This document shows positions 32,528 to 63,828 of a DNA stretch of 64,000 nucleotides, in pieces. The notes beneath the pieces are model-generated. The model was not told where the DNA came from. It saw nothing but the letters and a program-made list of their open reading frames with translations, and did not search any database. Each line of letters begins with the position of its first letter. Position 1 is the stretch's first letter. Position numbers and translations under genes: made by a program. Source of the DNA: Escherichia virus ESCO5 (lineage: Duplodnaviria > Heunggongvirae > Uroviricota > Caudoviricetes); the IMG/VR virus record IMGVR_UViG_2974610597_000001, one strand, 5' to 3'.

Positions 32528-33121
32528 TTACACCTTAAAAGCGAAATGCGTGGTCGTGGCTTCAAAATCAGGGCCAGATAAACTTGCACTGAAATCTGAA
32601 ATATTTGTAATTAAAAAGCTTTTATGCATACCTAACACAGCCACGCTTTCAATATCTTCTACTAACATTTCAATCATGTTAGAAACATGGCTGAACGTAG
32701 AGTTTTGTTTTTTGATGGTGTAGAAAGAAAGATTCCCACCTGCTATATAAGACACCTCTTCAAAATCTTTAATCGTATATTGTGTGCCATCAGTAAAGAA
32801 AATGGTAGCTTTATTAGTAGCACGTTTCTTGTTTTTTGGTCCTTTTTTACGTTTACTGCGAGTAGGCAAACCGTTTGGAAATACCGTAGCTACAAATTCT
32901 TCAGGAGAAACCTCCTTACCGAAATCATAACCGTAAGAAACAGCGTCTATAAACTCGTCGTCTTCATTTTTAAAATAATGAAAATAGGGCCAATTTGAGA
33001 GATTATCGAGCATCTTATGCTCATCCACAGCAGAGAACGTATCCCTCAAAGCACGTGTGATTTGCAAAGCATTAGGCAAACTTTTAACACCTGTAATGGA
33101 AGTACGAATAGAAATTGTCAT
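32528..33121 (-). CDS. Hypothetical protein
   Basis: 197-aa ORF with KR-rich central patch. Confidence 0.35.
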   Translation of the reverse strand: MTISIRTSITGVKSLPNALQITRALRDTFSAVDEHKMLDNLSNWPYFHYFKNEDDEFIDAVSYGYDFGKEVSPEEFVATVFPNGLPTRSKRKKGPKNKKRATNKATIFFTDGTQYTIKDFEEVSYIAGGNLSFYTIKKQNSTFSHVSNMIEMLVEDIESVAVLGMHKSFLITNISDFSASLSGPDFEATTTHFAFKV

Positions 33122-33135
33122 TGTTTTTCTCCTTA

Positions 33136-33573
33136 TTAACGTCGCTTGCTACGAGATGAACTCTTTTTACTTAAAGGACTATTGTAAGATTTACGAGTTG
33201 TATAGCTACTATTTGTTTTAAAAGTTTGTCTCGGCTTTTCATAAGTTTTTATCTCTTGTTTAGGCTTACTATAAAAATTAGTTTTCGGTTTAGGTGTATT
33301 ATAATGCTTATTAATAATCGTTCTGTTATCGTTATAATCCCCACTGCTACGATTACTACCGCCACTCATCATATGCCCTAACAACATACCTGTAGCAAAC
33401 TCACCAACACCGCTACTACTAGAACCGCCACCATTGTTGATAATAGTTGTATCTCCGTCAGATCCTTGTTGAGCGTATTGTTGAGGAGGTTGTTGGTATT
33501 GTGCAGGATTTGTTTCATCCTCGCAAGCTGTTAAAAAGATACAACCAATTAAAATCAGGGCTAGTTTTTTCAT
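33136..33573 (-). CDS. Lipoprotein, Gln/Gly/Ser-rich
   Basis: Start refined to ATG at 33573 giving MKKLALILIGCIFLTAC (signal peptide plus lipobox LTAC). Confidence 0.45.
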   Translation of the reverse strand: MKKLALILIGCIFLTACEDETNPAQYQQPPQQYAQQGSDGDTTIINNGGGSSSSGVGEFATGMLLGHMMSGGSNRSSGDYNDNRTIINKHYNTPKPKTNFYSKPKQEIKTYEKPRQTFKTNSSYTTRKSYNSPLSKKSSSRSKRR

Positions 33574-33760
33574 ATTTGCTTTCCTCGTTTTGGCTATTAA
33601 TACATCTGTGTTTGAAATCTCCAGAGAAGCAATAAAGTTGCTCTCCATCTCGGTATAAACTCACTTTACTGCCGTTGATTACGCTTGTCAATACAAAAAT
33701 TACAACAAACAACCCTATTGCAAAACAAATATTTTCAAACACAACCAACAAGTATTTCAT
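33515..33760 (-). CDS. Small membrane protein
   Basis: 81 aa with one hydrophobic helix (VVFENICFAIGLFVVIFVL). Confidence 0.3.
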   Translation of the reverse strand: MKYLLVVFENICFAIGLFVVIFVLTSVINGSKVSLYRDGEQLYCFSGDFKHRCINSQNEESKYEKTSPDFNWLYLFNSLRG

Positions 33761-34107
33761 TTTAAAAATACCTCATCATCAGTTTCATTATCCCAGAAGA
33801 ACAAGTCCCAACCATTCGGATCATTCCATTTAGCTGCTGGAGAAGTCCATATTTGCTCGATATCAATATTCAAAACTTCACCGTTTCGTTTTGAAACAGC
33901 TTTAGTTAATTCCCAACGGGATACAGGCTCCACTTCCCCTGAACCACTCCCACAACAAGCTACCACATTAGGAGGCAAATTAATTGGATCTTTGGTCACA
34001 ATCATAACGCTTACCCCAGGGTAAACTTTTGAAAGATAATCTAAAACGTAATCCACATCACCAGATAAATCCCAAACAAGTTCTTGAATTTCATCAAAAT
34101 TATTCAT
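33757..34107 (-). CDS. Hypothetical protein
   Basis: 116-aa ORF. Confidence 0.35.
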   Translation of the reverse strand: MNNFDEIQELVWDLSGDVDYVLDYLSKVYPGVSVMIVTKDPINLPPNVVACCGSGSGEVEPVSRWELTKAVSKRNGEVLNIDIEQIWTSPAAKWNDPNGWDLFFWDNETDDEVFLK

Positions 34108-34149
34108 AAGTCTCTCCTATAAAATAGCCTCCCGAAGGAGGCTCATCTA

Positions 34150-35223
34150 TTAAACAGCAGCTTCTTCTTTTTCAGGGAAGATAAAGCTTGCAATAACACC
34201 AAGAGATAATGTGCCTAGAACAATCATCAGACTTACGTTAGGGGAAATATCATGCGGGAGGAATGACCACTTGGCATGAAGTGTTTCACCGAACGGGTGA
34301 TACATAAGTTTAGCACCAACAAACACCAGAACCACAGCAACAGCTTTCTCTAAGTGAACCAGATATTTCACAGCTACACTTAACACAAAGAAAAGTGCAC
34401 GTAAACCAAGAACAGCCATCAGCATTGCAGAATAAACTAGCAGAGGTTCTTGTGTCACACCGATTACAGCCGGAACTGAATCAAAAGAGAAGACAATATC
34501 TGTAAGCTCAATAACAAACACACAAAGAAGAGCAGGAGTTGCATATTTAATACCATTCTTAATGGTAATGAACTTTTCACCATCTAGTGCATTGTGCACA
34601 GGCAGAACTTTACCTACTAAACGAACAGCCCAATGCTTAGAGTAATCAATATCCTCTTCTTCGTCACCACCTTTGATGATAGCCACGGCAGACCAAGCTA
34701 CAATCAAACCGAACAACACTTGGACCGACCAATGAAGGTTAAACAAAGCGGTCCCTGCTGCAACAAAAATACCTCGGAAGACAATGGCTCCTGCAATCCC
34801 CCAAAGTAAAATCTTATGTTGAAGATGTGTGCTCTTAATTCCAAAGCTTGCAAAAATTGCCATGAATACCATCAGGTTATCTACAGAAAGACTCTTTTCC
34901 AACACATAGCCACTTAGGAAAAGCGCGGCAAACTCTTTACCATGTTCTACCCAAATGAATGCGTAATATCCTAAAGCTAAAGCAATCCAAAAAACAGACC
35001 AAAGCAAAGCAGATTTAATTCCAATTTCTTTATTTTTACCATGTTCTACCCAAATGAATGCGTAATATCCTAAAGCTAAAGCAATCCAAAAAACAGACCA
35101 AAGCAAAGCAGATTTAATTCCAATTTCTTTATTCTCTTTATGACCAAAGAAATCGATACCAATAGACAATGCCAAAATACCAACTAAAACAACTACATCA
35201 ATAATTGGGAAACCGAGTTGCAT
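34150..35223 (-). CDS. terC: TerC-family integral membrane protein, containing an in-frame 33-aa tandem duplication
   Basis: 357 aa, multiple TM helices; signature LEKSLSVDNLMVF; segment KNKEIGIKSALLWSVFWIALALGYYAFIWVEHG occurs twice consecutively. Confidence 0.75.
   Translation of the reverse strand: MQLGFPIIDVVVLVGILALSIGIDFFGHKENKEIGIKSALLWSVFWIALALGYYAFIWVEHGKNKEIGIKSALLWSVFWIALALGYYAFIWVEHGKEFAALFLSGYVLEKSLSVDNLMVFMAIFASFGIKSTHLQHKILLWGIAGAIVFRGIFVAAGTALFNLHWSVQVLFGLIVAWSAVAIIKGGDEEEDIDYSKHWAVRLVGKVLPVHNALDGEKFITIKNGIKYATPALLCVFVIELTDIVFSFDSVPAVIGVTQEPLLVYSAMLMAVLGLRALFFVLSVAVKYLVHLEKAVAVVLVFVGAKLMYHPFGETLHAKWSFLPHDISPNVSLMIVLGTLSLGVIASFIFPEKEEAAV
34939..35136. repeat. Near-perfect 99-bp tandem direct duplication inside terC coding sequence
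   Basis: 34939..35037 and 35038..35136 identical over about 95 bp (accatgttctacccaaatgaatgcgtaatatcctaaagctaaagcaatcc...), diverging only in last few bases. Confidence 0.9.
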
Positions 35224-35240
35224 TCTTTTCTCCTCTCTTT

Positions 35241-35301
35241 GCGGGGAACTATTCCCCGCTTCATTTGATATATATCTTACTCTTTTTAAGAACTATGTCA
35301 A
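35241..35301 (-). promoter_or_regulatory. Promoter plus 5'-UTR hairpin cassette driving terC
   Basis: Minus-strand reading: TTGACA - 16 nt - TAAGAT, then hairpin GCGGGGAA-TAG-TTCCCCGC, then SD AGAGGAG and ATG; same architecture and near-identical hairpin as cassette at 57455..57510. Confidence 0.5.
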
Positions 35302-35304
35302 CAC

Positions 35305-35526
35305 TTATTTTGTTGAATGAGAGGAAAAGATTCCTCGTAATACCGCCAGAATAAACGAAACACAAACCACGGTCCAGAAGGTTACTGGGACAGTGATATC
35401 TGCATGACCCATAACTTCAGCAACATAGTTGTAAGCCAGCAACAGTAACCAAGCTGGAATCAAACTAAGCATAAAAGCAATAACAAAAAAGCTTACCACC
35501 GCAATAATACCTGCAAAAACACCCAT
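35305..35526 (-). CDS. Small membrane protein
   Basis: 73 aa, two hydrophobic helices. Confidence 0.3.
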   Translation of the reverse strand: MGVFAGIIAVVSFFVIAFMLSLIPAWLLLLAYNYVAEVMGHADITVPVTFWTVVCVSFILAVLRGIFSSHSTK

Positions 35527-35538
35527 ACTAATCTCCTC

Positions 35539-36012
35539 TTAAAGTTTATAAATAGTCACATCGTGACCTGTTTTTACTAAAGTTTCTTCAATCATCACTT
35601 GGATGATAGCCCAATTACCTCCAGCATATCCAGCGCCAATCATAGGTAAGCCGATCTTACATTTTTGGTCACGGAGAAGCACATCATTAGCCATAGCTAT
35701 TAGTGCATCGTAAAGTGCATCATAGTCCAACTGACGACCTTTAGCATTGTATCCGTAACGGTATTGCCCGTATAGATTATATACCAAAGGGTCTGATTGT
35801 TCGTCTGGCACCCCTAAACTAAAAGAACCTAACTTACTTTGATCACCAGCCATTGTGTCTAAATCTGCCGCATATGCATAAGGGAATGCTCGTTTAATTT
35901 GCGGAGCAATTCCTGCCCCCATATTACACATACAATTGCAACAATGAGCAATAACAGTTACTTCACCTGCTTTAGCGGCATCAATAAGATTACCTGTTTT
36001 CATTTTAAGCAT
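35539..36012 (-). CDS. Macro-domain protein (ADP-ribose binding/hydrolase family)
   Basis: Start refined to ATG at 36012 (TAAGGAG 6 nt upstream); VIAHCCNCMCNMGAGIAPQI and KIGLPMIGAGYAGGNW correspond to the two Gly-rich ADP-ribose-binding loops of macro domains. Confidence 0.55.
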   Translation of the reverse strand: MLKMKTGNLIDAAKAGEVTVIAHCCNCMCNMGAGIAPQIKRAFPYAYAADLDTMAGDQSKLGSFSLGVPDEQSDPLVYNLYGQYRYGYNAKGRQLDYDALYDALIAMANDVLLRDQKCKIGLPMIGAGYAGGNWAIIQVMIEETLVKTGHDVTIYKL

Positions 36013-36025
36013 TTTTAGCTCCTTA

Positions 36026-36853
36026 TTACAGAATGTGTTGTTTTGTGTAACGATCCAAGAATTCAAAGTTTTCAGCATACTTTGAAATTCGGTTGTAACC
36101 TTCTCCCAAACATCCGAAGAAAAGTTGCTCTACATAGTAGTGTGGCAATTGGCTAAGAATGATTTTGAAGTCTTCGTGATTTTGGCCCATAAGATACTTA
36201 ATAGGACGAACAAGACACTGTGCATCACGTTCTTCATTAATCATTTTAACAAACGCTTCTGGTGTATTGATATAGTTAAAATTCAGTTTAGCTTCAGTAT
36301 CTGCTTGATTACCTTCATATTTTGCAAAATACAAGAAGTAAACATCATTTTTAACTTGATTTTCATCAAGAATCTCAATCAGTTTGTCTTCATGAGTTCC
36401 GGTGATATTTACATCATCAATGAACACAAGCTTCTTATCACCCCAGAATTCTTTGTTGCAGTAGAATGTATCCCCATCAATAAGTTTCTTACGACTAGCT
36501 TTATCCAAGAAACCATAATCGTTGATATAGCTAACTTTACGATGAATAATATCCAGTTCTGCTGAACGACCTTGATCATATTGTGCTTGCAACATATTAA
36601 AGTAATTAATAAAATGATCTGTCATCATTGTTGCAGCATTGTGCACATGGTTATAAGGAGAAGGGATGATAACAAATTGTTCCCCAATATGTTTCATTGC
36701 CACTTGAGCAAAAAACTGAAGTACCAATTCTTTACCCATACGACGCGCAGCTTGGTTACTACCAAATTTCAATTTTGAATAGTCTTTGATATCAAAAGTA
36801 GCAGTTTCCAGGTCATCAAATTTATTTGCAAAAATTTGAGTTTGATTACGCAT
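36026..36853 (-). CDS. Phosphoribosyltransferase-like protein (type I PRT fold)
   Basis: 275 aa; PRPP-binding-type motif KKLVFIDDVNITGTHED (hydrophobic run, two acidic residues, then T-G-T). Confidence 0.45.
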   Translation of the reverse strand: MRNQTQIFANKFDDLETATFDIKDYSKLKFGSNQAARRMGKELVLQFFAQVAMKHIGEQFVIIPSPYNHVHNAATMMTDHFINYFNMLQAQYDQGRSAELDIIHRKVSYINDYGFLDKASRKKLIDGDTFYCNKEFWGDKKLVFIDDVNITGTHEDKLIEILDENQVKNDVYFLYFAKYEGNQADTEAKLNFNYINTPEAFVKMINEERDAQCLVRPIKYLMGQNHEDFKIILSQLPHYYVEQLFFGCLGEGYNRISKYAENFEFLDRYTKQHIL

Positions 36854-37502
36854 TTACAATTTCTCCTCTTTTAAGTTTCTCTAGTAAGTCGTTAGGGTTC
36901 TTAATATGACAGAAGTTAATCCCTATGTCAACACATTTACCATCAAATTCTTCGCTGTCCCCAACATGTAAAATCTCTTCAGCCTTCAAAGGAATGCTTG
37001 AATATGTGGCGGTCCTAACAAAGAATCTAGGATCTGGTTTACATAACAGATGTTCGTCTGAAAAATGCATAAATTCAAAACAATTCCAACTGTCGAACAT
37101 ACAAGCACGACGCAAAATATCCCCAGATATAAAATTAGTATTGCTTTTAATACTAAGATCATATTTACCAGACAAGTATAGCAAACAAACTGGCAAATCT
37201 AAAGCGATATGTGGAGGAAATTTAAGAAACCATTGCTCACAATCAAAACGCATTTGTGCAGATTCTACAGGGGTTAAACCTATCTTTCTTCCCAACATAT
37301 TCCATGCATATGCTACACCTTCTGCACACCCATTTAGTGCAGCATTATCCATAATTTCTTTGGCATCTTTATATGCTTCTTTTGCCGCACGTTCAGACAT
37401 TCTACCATATGTAGCAATAGTGTGCGTACGTGCATCTGCATAGTTTTGATTGGCAGAAATAAGAGTATTCCATACATCAAAAGAAATATGTTTTATTGTC
37501 AT
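36846..37502 (-). CDS. HAD-superfamily hydrolase-like protein
   Basis: N-terminal ISFDVWNTL (degenerate motif I), CKPDP (motif III Lys), HVGDSEEFD (motif IV); start codon uncertain (ATG at 37502 or 37520). Confidence 0.4.
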   Translation of the reverse strand: MTIKHISFDVWNTLISANQNYADARTHTIATYGRMSERAAKEAYKDAKEIMDNAALNGCAEGVAYAWNMLGRKIGLTPVESAQMRFDCEQWFLKFPPHIALDLPVCLLYLSGKYDLSIKSNTNFISGDILRRACMFDSWNCFEFMHFSDEHLLCKPDPRFFVRTATYSSIPLKAEEILHVGDSEEFDGKCVDIGINFCHIKNPNDLLEKLKRGEIVNA

Positions 37503-55722: not shown

Positions 55723-55875
55723 TCCTATACAAACCCTTGTCTTTTTCAGTTTGCATCACTAGGATTCGATCTGAGTGGGTTCCTGAAGGTCTGCCAATAA
55801 GATTAAAGGTTATCTCAAATTCCCACTACCTATTATCTCAAAAATCCCTCAAATTATTTAAACTTTTTAAGAATT

Positions 55876-56060
55876 TACAAAAGTGAAAGTTGAAAACCAA
55901 AATTTAAAGTTTAGGAAAATTATCTTAAAATGTCAGATACAAAACAAAACTCAAAAGTCAAGGAAAATTTTAAAAATTTTGCGCGCCCACAGTATTTAAA
56001 GTTTTTTTGCTTTTACAAAAATGAAAGTACAAAAGCAAAATTTAAAGTTTACAAAAATTT
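55876..56060. repeat. AT-rich direct repeats (about 45 bp, 2 full plus 1 partial copy)
   Basis: acaaaagtgaaagttgaaaaccaaaatttaaagtttaggaaaat (55876-) and acaaaaatgaaagtacaaaagcaaaatttaaagtttacaaaaat (56013-), with related partial copy around 55940. Confidence 0.7.
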
Positions 56061-56069
56061 ATGCAGATG

Positions 56070-56185
56070 GGAATGAGAAGAGTTCTCATATGGAAATGCA
56101 AATGATAATGATTCGCATTTAGGTTTATAAATGAGATTGATTCTTATTTGATAAGGTAAATGATAATCATTCTCATTTAGAGAAT
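56070..56185. repeat. Array of four about 29-bp tandem repeats, each carrying an imperfect palindrome AAATGAnA...TTCnCATTT (iteron/operator-like)
   Basis: Units begin near 56072, 56101, 56129, 56158: aatgagaagagttctcat / aatgataatgattcgcattt / aatgagattgattcttattt / aatgataatcattctcattt. Confidence 0.7.
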
Positions 56186-56811: not shown

Positions 56812-56870
56812 TTGACGTTCGCCAGGTGGCGGCATAATATTTACCACGTAGGGCGGCAATGGTGCCGCTC
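56812..56870 (+). promoter_or_regulatory. Promoter-hairpin cassette 1
   Basis: TTGACG - 17 nt - TAATAT, then TTACCACGTA and hairpin GGGCGGCA-ATGG-TGCCGCTC. Confidence 0.55.
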
Positions 56871-57454: not shown

Positions 57455-57510
57455 TTGACATTAACGAATAATTTGTTAATATGTTACATAAAGCGGGAAT
57501 AGTTCCCGCT
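57455..57510 (+). promoter_or_regulatory. Promoter-hairpin cassette 3
   Basis: TTGACA - 17 nt - TAATAT, hairpin AGCGGGAA-TAG-TTCCCGCT. Confidence 0.5.
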
Positions 57511-60146: not shown

Positions 60147-60167
60147 ACAACTAAAAGAGAAATCATC

Positions 60168-60362
60168 ATGGCGCTTAAAAAACTAACAAGCAATACTCGT
60201 TGGGATGAAATTGACGGGGAAGTATACATTTTCGCCCGTAAACCAGGTGATCAAAAATGGTCAAAGGCTTTTACTTGCCACCCTGCAACAATAGACCTGA
60301 TAAAAAGGGAAGGTTTACGTGAAGCGGTAGCAAGAAGTTTACTGATCCCTTATAAAAAATAG
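60168..60362 (+). CDS. Small early-type protein
   Basis: Start refined to ATG 60168 (SD AAAAGAGA). Confidence 0.4.
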   Translation: MALKKLTSNTRWDEIDGEVYIFARKPGDQKWSKAFTCHPATIDLIKREGLREAVARSLLIPYKK

Positions 60363-60363
60363 T

Positions 60364-61163: not shown

Positions 61164-61220
61164 TTGACACAGATCGCCAGTGTGCTAATATTTACCACGT
61201 AGGGCGGCAATGGTGCCGCC
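61164..61220 (+). promoter_or_regulatory. Promoter-hairpin cassette 11
   Basis: TTGACA - 17 nt - TAATAT + TTACCACGTA + GGGCGGCAATGGTGCCGCC. Confidence 0.55.
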
Positions 61221-63235: not shown

Positions 63236-63260
63236 AAGGGCGCACTAAGCGCCCTTTAAC
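63236..63260 (+). other. GC hairpin/weak terminator
   Basis: AAGGGCGCACTAAGCGCCCTT followed by TAACG; paralog of terminator at 63800. Confidence 0.35.
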
Positions 63261-63799: not shown

Positions 63800-63828
63800 A
63801 AGGGCGCACCAAGCGCCCTTTCTTTTTG
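63800..63828 (+). terminator. Rho-independent terminator
   Basis: AGGGCGCACCAAGCGCCCT followed by TTCTTTTTG. Confidence 0.55.

Follow-up and report, generated by a model that had tools for sequence, protein, structure and literature searches.

The promoter and 5' hairpin of terC in Escherichia phage ESCO5 belong to the cassette family of the early-gene array

We wanted to establish whether the terC gene of Escherichia phage ESCO5 is preceded by the same promoter-hairpin cassette as a distant early-gene array on the other strand, as a preliminary description had claimed, and how long such an element has stood there. The window, which is the whole stretch of DNA that was analysed, comprises 64,000 nucleotides. 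Its positions 33000-37500 matched Escherichia phage ESCO5 (KX664695.3; Phapecoctavirus, Stephanstirmvirinae) with 100% identity in megablast, and a full comparison with the ESCO5 GenBank record placed the window at record positions 84347-148302 with two differences only. The window terC carries an extra, perfect, in-frame 99-bp tandem copy relative to KX664695.3. The GenBank record has a 55-bp tandem copy of one array cassette, and the window is without that copy.

Upstream of terC we read TTGACA, 16 nt, TAAGAT, a hairpin, a Shine-Dalgarno sequence (SD) and ATG, with the sequence and coordinates as previously claimed. The features used in this study are the following:

35302..35316, minus strand: A-rich tract TCAACAAAATAAGTG, UP-element-like, 5' of the -35 hexamer; it aligns with the array tract AATAAAAAGTA in the profile
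35296..35301, minus strand: -35 hexamer TTGACA; TTGAC in all relatives, with A or T as the sixth base
35280..35295, minus strand: 16-nt spacer with the 3' end AAAAAGAG, a motif also found in array cassettes c59437 and c60089
35274..35279, minus strand: -10 hexamer TAAGAT, identical in array cassettes c57094 and c58532
35260..35273, minus strand: start-site region ATATATCAAATGAA, 14 nt, a degraded copy of the array motif TATCACAT
35241..35259, minus strand: 5'-UTR stem-loop GCGGGGAA-UAG-UUCCCCGC (DNA GCGGGGAATAGTTCCCCGC; 3' arm TTCCCCGC), with compensatory changes in relatives
35230..35234, minus strand: Shine-Dalgarno sequence AGGAG, 6 nt 5' of the ATG, invariant in the alignments
34150..35223, minus strand: terC coding sequence, a TerC/Alx family membrane protein (357-aa ORF, Pfam TerC PF03741, 4e-40)
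34126..34143, minus strand: terminator-like stem-loop AGCCUCC-UUCG-GGAGGCU, then AUUUUAU, directly after the terC stop codon
56797..62545, plus strand: early-gene array with 12 promoter-hairpin cassettes of one family, from profile and motif scans
57455..57510, plus strand: cassette 3 of the array, with hairpin AGCGGGAATAGTTCCCGCT at 57492-57510

The terC stem starts 14 nt after the -10 hexamer and has 8 bp and a loop of 3 nt (UAG). The hairpin folds with -13.1 kcal/mol, and none of 200 shuffled sequences was equally stable. It is followed by AAAGAG-AGGAG-AAAAGA and then by the ATG at 35223 (minus strand), 17 nt after the stem. The hairpin leaves the SD unpaired, and in the centroid fold the SD is mostly free. 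The Rfam scan of the whole window gave no match at or above the gathering score, including the yybP-ykoY/alx leader; therefore terC does not have a leader of the alx or yybP-ykoY type. In relatives, the orthologous gene carries the annotation TerC or Alx. Consensus sigma70 promoters also precede several further genes of the minus-strand block that contains terC.

The -35 hexamers of the array start, on the plus strand, at 56812, 57094, 57455, 58341, 58532, 58983, 59437, 59769, 60089, 60364, 61164 and 62470. The consensus of the array consists of an A-rich tract, TTGACA, 16-17 nt, TAnnnT, (T)TAYCAC(A/G)TAG, a GC-rich stem-loop, approximately 20 nt, an SD and ATG. A profile HMM of the array cassettes found the terC element at full length (E=8e-8), and all other consensus sigma70 promoters in the window obtained E values of 0.19 or worse. 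Further, we used an HMM of 11 array cassettes from which cassette 3 was left out. It matched the terC element at 35311-35230 over profile positions 6-85 with 27.1 bits (E=1.4e-7), which is above the 20.6 bits of the left-out cassette 3 itself. The next non-array matches of this HMM in the window had at most 10 bits, and consensus promoters without a hairpin at most 7 bits. Over the complete 149-kb ESCO5 genome the profile matched only the array and the terC site, and the remaining 84 kb of that genome lacked the array start-site motif.

The degenerate hairpin pattern had 4 matches in the window, where 0.01 were expected, and hairpins of the GCGG(G/C) type were found in the window only 9-14 nt after consensus promoters. 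The remaining strong GC-rich hairpins of the window were of the terminator type, with A/T-flanked stems and T tails. Four other consensus promoters of the terC block, each standing directly 5' of an SD and start codon (49649, 47246, 28475 and 20955), had no such hairpin. Based on the profile, motif and hairpin scans, the terC promoter is the sole member of the array family outside the array, and we regard its membership as established.

The terC element shows the layout of the family (TTGACA, a spacer of 16-17 nt, TAnnnT and an A-rich upstream tract). Outside the hexamers it resembles the array in the upstream A-tract, in the spacer end AAAAAGAGTA, which it has in common with c59437 and c60089, in the degraded start-site motif and in the stem. 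The resemblance thus goes beyond the sigma70 hexamers, and the alignment bears out the earlier claim of a shared cassette. One could argue that a generic strong sigma70 promoter and a generic GC hairpin came to look alike by coincidence or convergence, as the terC element, when compared up to and including the hairpin, is 56-70% identical to single array cassettes, a modest margin over the 46-58% of hairpin-less control promoters. We give this almost no credence, since the profile separates the terC element (27 bits) from the other consensus promoters (7 bits or fewer), AAAAAGAGTA and, in orthologues, TATCACAT are shared outside the hexamers, family hairpins adjoin promoters only, and terC has the sole extra copy in 149 kb.

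The preliminary description had singled out cassette 3 (c57455) as the counterpart of the terC element. The two hairpins are indeed nearly identical: they have the 13-mer GGGAATAGTTCCC in common and differ in one extra G:C pair, and the hairpin of cassette 3 also has an 8-bp stem and a UAG loop (-11.4 kcal/mol). A special tie to cassette 3 was not supported. Measured from the -35 hexamer through the hairpin, the terC element was 70% identical to c58532 and 67% identical to each of c57455, c60089 and c59437; c58532 and c60089, and not cassette 3, were its best partners. The variant with the TAG loop is frequent in arrays (6181 and 8010 in alia, 8958 in 536P1), which makes the likeness to cassette 3 unspecific.

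We compared the terC upstream regions of phAPEC8, ESCO37 and phiWec190 (Phapecoctavirus), muut (Justusliebigvirus), Klebsiella phage KP13-26 and Citrobacter phage Tr1, together with those of seven IMG/VR and metagenome contigs. Promoter, hairpin, AGGAG and terC were present in all Stephanstirmvirinae copies that we retrieved. The close relatives read TAAGAT(A/G)TATCACATGA(A/G)GCGGGG and thus have the array motif TAAGAT(G/A)TATCACAT intact. The window copy of terC reads ATATCAAATGAA and does not match TA(Y)CAC(R)TAG within 3 mismatches, while ESCO37, phAPEC8 and phiWec190 carry TATCACATGA. The start-site region of ESCO5 has a 2-nt AT insertion in the (AT)n run and a C>A change, and both are private to this phage. 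The terC elements of relatives are nearer to the array than the ESCO5 copy; the phAPEC8 element TAAGATGTATCACATGAGGCGGGG (TAAGATGTATCACAT...) has 77% identity to c58532 with an exact run of 15 nt.

The terC hairpins were of five types: GCGGGGAA-TAG-TTCCCCGC, GCGGGGAG-TGG-TTCCCCGC, GCGGAGGA-TTG-TCCTCCGC, AGAGGGAG-ATAGG-CTCCCTCT and AGGGAGAG-ATAGG-CTCTCCCT. All seven core pairs were paired in each of the ten terC hairpins of the alignment, and five of the seven were changed on both sides. The covariation score of this 10-sequence alignment was 0.546, compared with 0.231 for shuffled alignments (0 of 500 reached 0.546) and 0.05-0.18 for slid registers. Conservation and base-pair covariation are in our opinion established. 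Judging from these comparisons, the linkage of cassette and terC is old and under selection for pairing.

Among more distant TerC genes (at most 52% identity, from other phages and bacteria) the cassette was absent in the upstream regions that we inspected, which were those of the nine closest genes and of two phage contigs at 47-51% identity. A metagenome scan added one near-identical terC cassette and one of the Klebsiella type; the other loci were distant TerC homologues. In the phAPEC8 record (NC_020079.1) a 'putative host dependent promoter determined with MEME' is annotated exactly at the terC site. The 5' hairpin, the link to the array cassettes and the covariation are described neither in the annotation of phAPEC8 nor in that of phage Schickermooser.

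Like cassettes, mostly with GGCGGGAA-NNN-TTCCCGCC stems, were found in the early regions of Justusliebigvirus alia, Tr1 and KP13-26, and such cassettes are also present in rV5 (Vequintavirinae). In 34 cassettes from 4 phages the stem began 6-14 nt after the -10 hexamer (9-14 nt in 33 of the 34), which corresponds to approximately +1 to +7 of the RNA. Stems had 6-10 bp, loops 3-6 nt, and the stem ended 17-27 nt before the ATG. We used sequence profiles and hairpin calls made for each sequence in place of an alignment consensus. RNAalifold on a MAFFT alignment of the 12 array cassettes gave 4 pairs at -0.66 kcal/mol and no usable consensus, because MAFFT misaligns hairpins that differ in the length of stem and loop. 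The terC hairpins of KP13-26 and Tr1 were unlike the array hairpins of the same phages, so there is no general concerted evolution, and we rejected concerted evolution of terC and array hairpins for the Klebsiella and Citrobacter phages.

The ESCO5 array is highly mosaic, with no other phage covering more than 59% of it. In comparisons with four relatives, 19 of 36 homology-block ends fell in cassettes, while 17% would be expected from length alone (p about 1e-6). This enrichment of breakpoints in array cassettes is suggestive, as homology tends generally to end in intergenic DNA. In the interval from c60089 to c60364, relatives have additional genes that amount to 3.4-4.2 kb.

The preliminary description had hinted that the cassette moved or recombined into its position at terC, as a mobile regulatory element would. 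A recent move from the array, and from cassette 3 in particular, would agree with the hairpin core that the two sites have in common, with the share of array breakpoints that lie in cassettes and with the 55-bp tandem copy in the GenBank record. Such a move is nevertheless very unlikely. The unit was present at the same position in every Stephanstirmvirinae relative examined, across genera, and the comparison of presence and absence found terC and cassette together in all those retrieved. Moreover, c58532 is closer than cassette 3, the profile made without cassette 3 performs as well, the TAG-loop variant is frequent in other arrays, and the Klebsiella and Citrobacter phages show no concerted evolution. 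The unit of cassette and terC occurs in Phapecoctavirus, in Justusliebigvirus and in the Klebsiella and Citrobacter members; therefore any capture predates the subfamily, and the age of the linkage argues against a recent move.

The downstream end of the unit is formed by the stem-loop directly after the terC stop codon. It folds with -12.4 kcal/mol and shows compensatory changes in 9 relatives, and the annotation of phage Schickermooser gives it as an ARNold terminator. When ESCO5 was compared with Justusliebigvirus genomes, DNA homology covered query positions 412-1575, which is 35289-34126 of the window; it begins in the promoter spacer and stops at the final base of the terminator stem. 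Upstream of terC, Phapecoctavirus has a gene for a 73-aa membrane protein, unrelated to the protein of approximately 80 aa at the same place in muut, KP13-26 and Tr1, and the downstream neighbour of terC also differs between genera. As the homology is limited to the span from promoter to terminator and the neighbours are non-homologous, the terC unit forms a separate module whose flanks vary, and we regard its boundaries as established. The edges of the unit are the limits of intergeneric DNA homology, and this, together with the cassettes at homology breakpoints in the array, favours the view of a recombination module.

How would this unit work? We consider it somewhat more probable than not that terC is an autonomous unit driven by host RNA polymerase, with a 5' hairpin that stabilises or insulates its mRNA. 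The unit stands within a long minus-strand block whose genes serve replication and nucleotide metabolism. Its consensus host-sigma70 promoter, which by sequence belongs to one family with the immediate-early promoters of the array, would start transcription a few nucleotides 5' of the stem-loop. With a start just 5' of the hairpin, the terC mRNA would carry a stable hairpin at its 5' end, then an unpaired SD and terC, and would end at the intrinsic terminator with the UUCG tetraloop. The 5' hairpin would shield the transcript from decay that depends on the 5' end (RppH, RNase E) and would insulate the ribosome-binding site from upstream sequence. The outcome would be strong expression of terC by host RNA polymerase, as for the array genes. 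Since the promoter is an array-type consensus host-sigma70 promoter, it is reasonable to infer from the sequence that terC is tied to the early regulon, as the preliminary description proposed. Our literature searches found no transcriptome or start-site map for Stephanstirmvirinae and no description of these cassettes.

The predicted starts assume the usual distance of 7-8 nt from the -10 hexamer. By this distance the terC transcript is predicted to start at C35267 or A35266, and the array transcripts at the CA of CAC-A/G-TAG. This predicts an unpaired 5' leader of approximately 7 nt in ESCO5, against approximately 5 nt in ESCO37 and phAPEC8 and approximately 3 nt in the array. For KP13-26 and Tr1 the leader comes to 0-1 nt, and in the Klebsiella and Citrobacter phages pairing already includes the predicted first nucleotide. 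Work by Belasco reportedly indicates that a few unpaired 5' nucleotides still allow full protection, and the approximately 7 nt of ESCO5 exceed this. On balance, the hairpin probably stabilises or insulates the terC mRNA.

We looked for signs of the strand and of the kind of nucleic acid under selection. There was no G-U asymmetry between the strands (18 sense, 16 antisense), and the sense strand folded on average approximately 1 kcal/mol better than the antisense strand (41 versus 20, observations that are not independent). With symmetric G-U pairs and a mild difference in folding energy, the covariation is silent on the strand and on whether RNA or DNA is under selection. In the array, the 5' arm GGCGGGAA is conserved among paralogous cassettes far more than pairing needs, which a sequence-specific factor or gene conversion might explain. 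We disfavoured a dimeric operator with fixed spacing because loops vary from 3 to 6 nt, stems vary from 6 to 10 bp and the stem sequence is variable.

The hairpin, as RNA or as an inverted repeat in DNA, could be a site at which a phage or host protein co-regulates the array transcripts and terC. Such a factor might act, for example, in early-mRNA shut-off, processing or antitermination, and terC would then be part of a post-transcriptional early regulon. The arms GGCGGGAA...TTCCCGCC and the motif CAC(A/G)TAGGGCGG are kept in dozens of paralogous cassettes of three genera and rV5, and the start-site motif of terC follows the array type of its lineage, CACAT(G/A) in the E. coli phages and TCAAG in KP13-26 and Tr1. 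However, the terC arms of KP13-26 (AGAGGGAG/CTCCCTCT) and Tr1 (AGGGAGAG/CTCTCCCT) are unlike those of their own arrays, with perfect pairing. Loops vary in sequence and in length (3-6 nt), no loop is conserved in the manner of boxA/boxB, and we found no candidate factor. We regard a factor site as possible but unlikely.

A broader version of this proposal combines it with the mosaicism of the arrays: the cassette would be a hitherto undescribed, family-wide regulatory module of rV5-like and phAPEC8-like phages (Stephanstirmvirinae and Vequintavirinae), its conserved GGCGGGAA/UUCCCGCC hairpin would be read by a dedicated phage or host factor, and the cassettes would serve as recombination joints in gene shuffling. 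We hold this to be doubtful. If true, it would mean a post-transcriptional early regulon that includes terC and a functional analogue of the PeSL cassettes of T4-type phages with another architecture and mechanism.

Another alternative is that the stem-loop terminates or attenuates read-through from upstream, as in PeSL, and thereby isolates terC and each gene of the array, and that the adjacent promoter restarts transcription. Stem-loops of PeSL from T4-type phages cut reporter expression about as much as rrnB T1 (PMC2839356), the cassettes are intergenic and stand directly after upstream stop codons, and array indels are bounded by cassettes. We find this quite improbable, because the stem lies 3' of its own promoter and an efficient terminator there would abort the transcript of the cassette itself. 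In the terminator scan in sense orientation only 1 of the 12 array hairpins passed and the terC hairpin did not, and the true terminator-type hairpins of this genome look different, with their A/T-flanked stems and T tails. On the sense strand the terC stem has no T-run (tail AAAGAGAGGA) and is therefore not a canonical terminator. Only the antisense reading of the terC hairpin passed the scan, with the interrupted tail TTCATTTG. We rejected an antisense terminator, as the array hairpins are without antisense T-tails and there is no plus-strand transcription towards the hairpin.

A promoter-driven unit with a stabilising or insulating 5' hairpin, the reading that we prefer, gives a concrete and testable model in which a large virulent coliphage would express an accessory membrane protein of metal-homeostasis type (TerC/Alx family) from host RNA polymerase, without dependence on the operon around it. 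The results also show that the early promoters of the therapeutically used phAPEC8-, phi92- and rV5-like phages are cassettes of promoter plus 5' hairpin, of which the annotations miss the hairpin. These cassettes combine a structure supported by covariation with gene shuffling that is associated with breakpoints. For phage engineering, the cassette is a candidate for a compact, strong and insulated expression element, and annotators can take the terC unit as a clear case of a homology module that extends from promoter to terminator.

We compared the terC unit with known systems. Morons, reportedly described in 2000 by Juhala and co-workers and by Hendrix and co-workers, are units of promoter, gene and terminator inserted in phage operons. 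They are typically found in temperate phages, and their presence varies between close relatives. The terC unit is similar in having its own predicted sigma70 promoter and terminator, in encoding an accessory membrane protein and in having its edges at homology breakpoints. Unlike morons, it was present without exception in the relatives examined, and the subfamily is a virulent one.

The nut/boxB sites of lambda are likewise small hairpins in a promoter-proximal early transcript. Antitermination at boxB needs a conserved loop and a boxA partner, while the loops of the cassettes vary freely (UAG, UGG, CAC, UGU, AUGG, AUAGG). Since every short gene of the array has its own promoter, antitermination is not needed.

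5'-terminal stem-loops are known to stabilise E. coli mRNAs such as ompA and papA, an established device (Emory 1992; Bouvet & Belasco 1992; Arnold 1998; as listed in PMC3997798). The cassettes are similar in that a stable hairpin lies a few nucleotides from the predicted 5' end and the ribosome-binding site is accessible, and the terC orthologues keep the structure and not the sequence. They differ in two respects: the predicted leader of approximately 7 nt in ESCO5 is longer than what is usually deemed protective, and the array keeps the sequence as well, for which elements of the ompA type have no need.

The nearest described kind of element to the terC and array cassettes is the PeSL of T4-type phages (Arbiol et al. 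2010, PMC2839356; Comeau et al. 2014, PMC4122927). Both are short cassettes that end in an SD and a start codon and join a GC-rich stem-loop to a strong early promoter of sigma70 type, upstream of which lies an AT-rich tract. The array also resembles PeSL in its many copies before small ORFans in a variable early region and, suggestively, in cassettes at the breakpoints of indels and replacements. The stem-loop of PeSL usually lies between the -35 and -10 hexamers or over the -10 hexamer, and it acts as a terminator (PMC2839356). Here, in contrast, the stem always lies 3' of the -10 hexamer, by 6-14 nt in each of the 34 cassettes and likewise downstream in the orthologues of terC, and it has no T-tract. 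The lineage is also a different one (Stephanstirmvirinae/Vequintavirinae), and the copy at terC stands in a conserved block and not in a hyperplastic region. In summary, these results carry the PeSL concept over to a further lineage, in which the layout differs, and they do not overturn the current understanding.

The array of promoter-hairpin cassettes on the plus strand is not the same in all the sequences that we compared. In GenBank KX664695.3, the record that matches the window, one cassette (c61164, named by its -35 start) is tandemly duplicated over 55 bp, and the window lacks the second copy. The duplicated unit starts at the second base of the -35 element and ends in the 3' arm of the hairpin. 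Therefore, there would be two tandem promoter-hairpin units in the record. A further difference lies between cassettes c60089 and c60364, where the window has one short gene, while 3.4-4.2 kb of extra small genes are found in PD06, ESCO13 and 536P1. This length difference is an indel bounded by cassettes in the early array. A pair of near-identical hairpins, AAGGGCGC-NNNNN-GCGCCCTT, 564 nt apart, was seen at the array's distal end; one of the two is predicted as a bidirectional terminator.

Window 61165-61219 (record 145412-145521): 55-bp unit of c61164, single in the window
Window 60147-60363: c60089-c60364 interval, compared with the loci of PD06, ESCO13 and 536P1
Window 63236-63256 and 63800-63820: hairpin pair at the array's distal end

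Differences were also observed within terC, the TerC/Alx family gene that carries its own cassette. Owing to a perfect, in-frame tandem duplication of 99 bp, 33 amino acids of TerC (NKEIGIKSALLWSVFWIALALGYYAFIWVEHGK) occur twice. This duplication was not found in KX664695.3 or in any relative compared. It is either a real variant with an added transmembrane segment or an assembly artefact of an earlier record version. In ESCO37, the ESCO5-type cassette is present together with the ESCO5-type first ~30 codons of terC, and past approximately residue 33 the gene is of the Justusliebigvirus type (72-73% identity). This allele switch is a recombination junction within terC, and it lies close to the start of the ESCO5 99-bp duplication. 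The gene block of terC also includes, ~2 kb further downstream, a gene for a TelA-like protein; therefore, with TelA and TerC, ESCO5 has two homologues associated with tellurite resistance.

Window 34936-35034 and 35035-35133, minus strand: tandem 99-bp copies in terC
ESCO37 locus 1976-2947: terC, compared with that of the window
Window ~31.0-32.1 kb (record 115171-116283): TelA-like protein gene, ESCO5_00060

Repeats of other kinds were detected in the large AT-rich non-coding region between divergent transcription units. Four palindrome-like boxes of 21 bp (AAATGAnAAnnATTCnCATTT) are spaced by 29 bp, and the best of them (window 56156-56174, GTAAATGATAATCATTCTC) agrees in 16 of 19 positions with the consensus Fur box of E. 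coli. KX664695.3 begins with a similar box. The boxes may serve to bind or titrate Fur, or they may act as a repeat of an origin or regulatory kind. The same region contains two direct repeats, 82% identical and 138 nt apart.

Window ~56071-56178: four 21-bp boxes
Window 55850-55921 and 55988-56059: direct repeats of 72 nt each

Promoters of the form TTGACA-N16-TAnnnT, each followed by a hairpin (GGCGGGAA-NNN-TTCCCGCC), were also identified in rV5, a member of Vequintavirinae, where they are absent from the annotation. Since rV5 has such promoter-hairpin units, the cassette family reaches beyond Stephanstirmvirinae.

rV5 locus (DQ832317.1), locus positions 611 and 3170: promoter-hairpin cassettes
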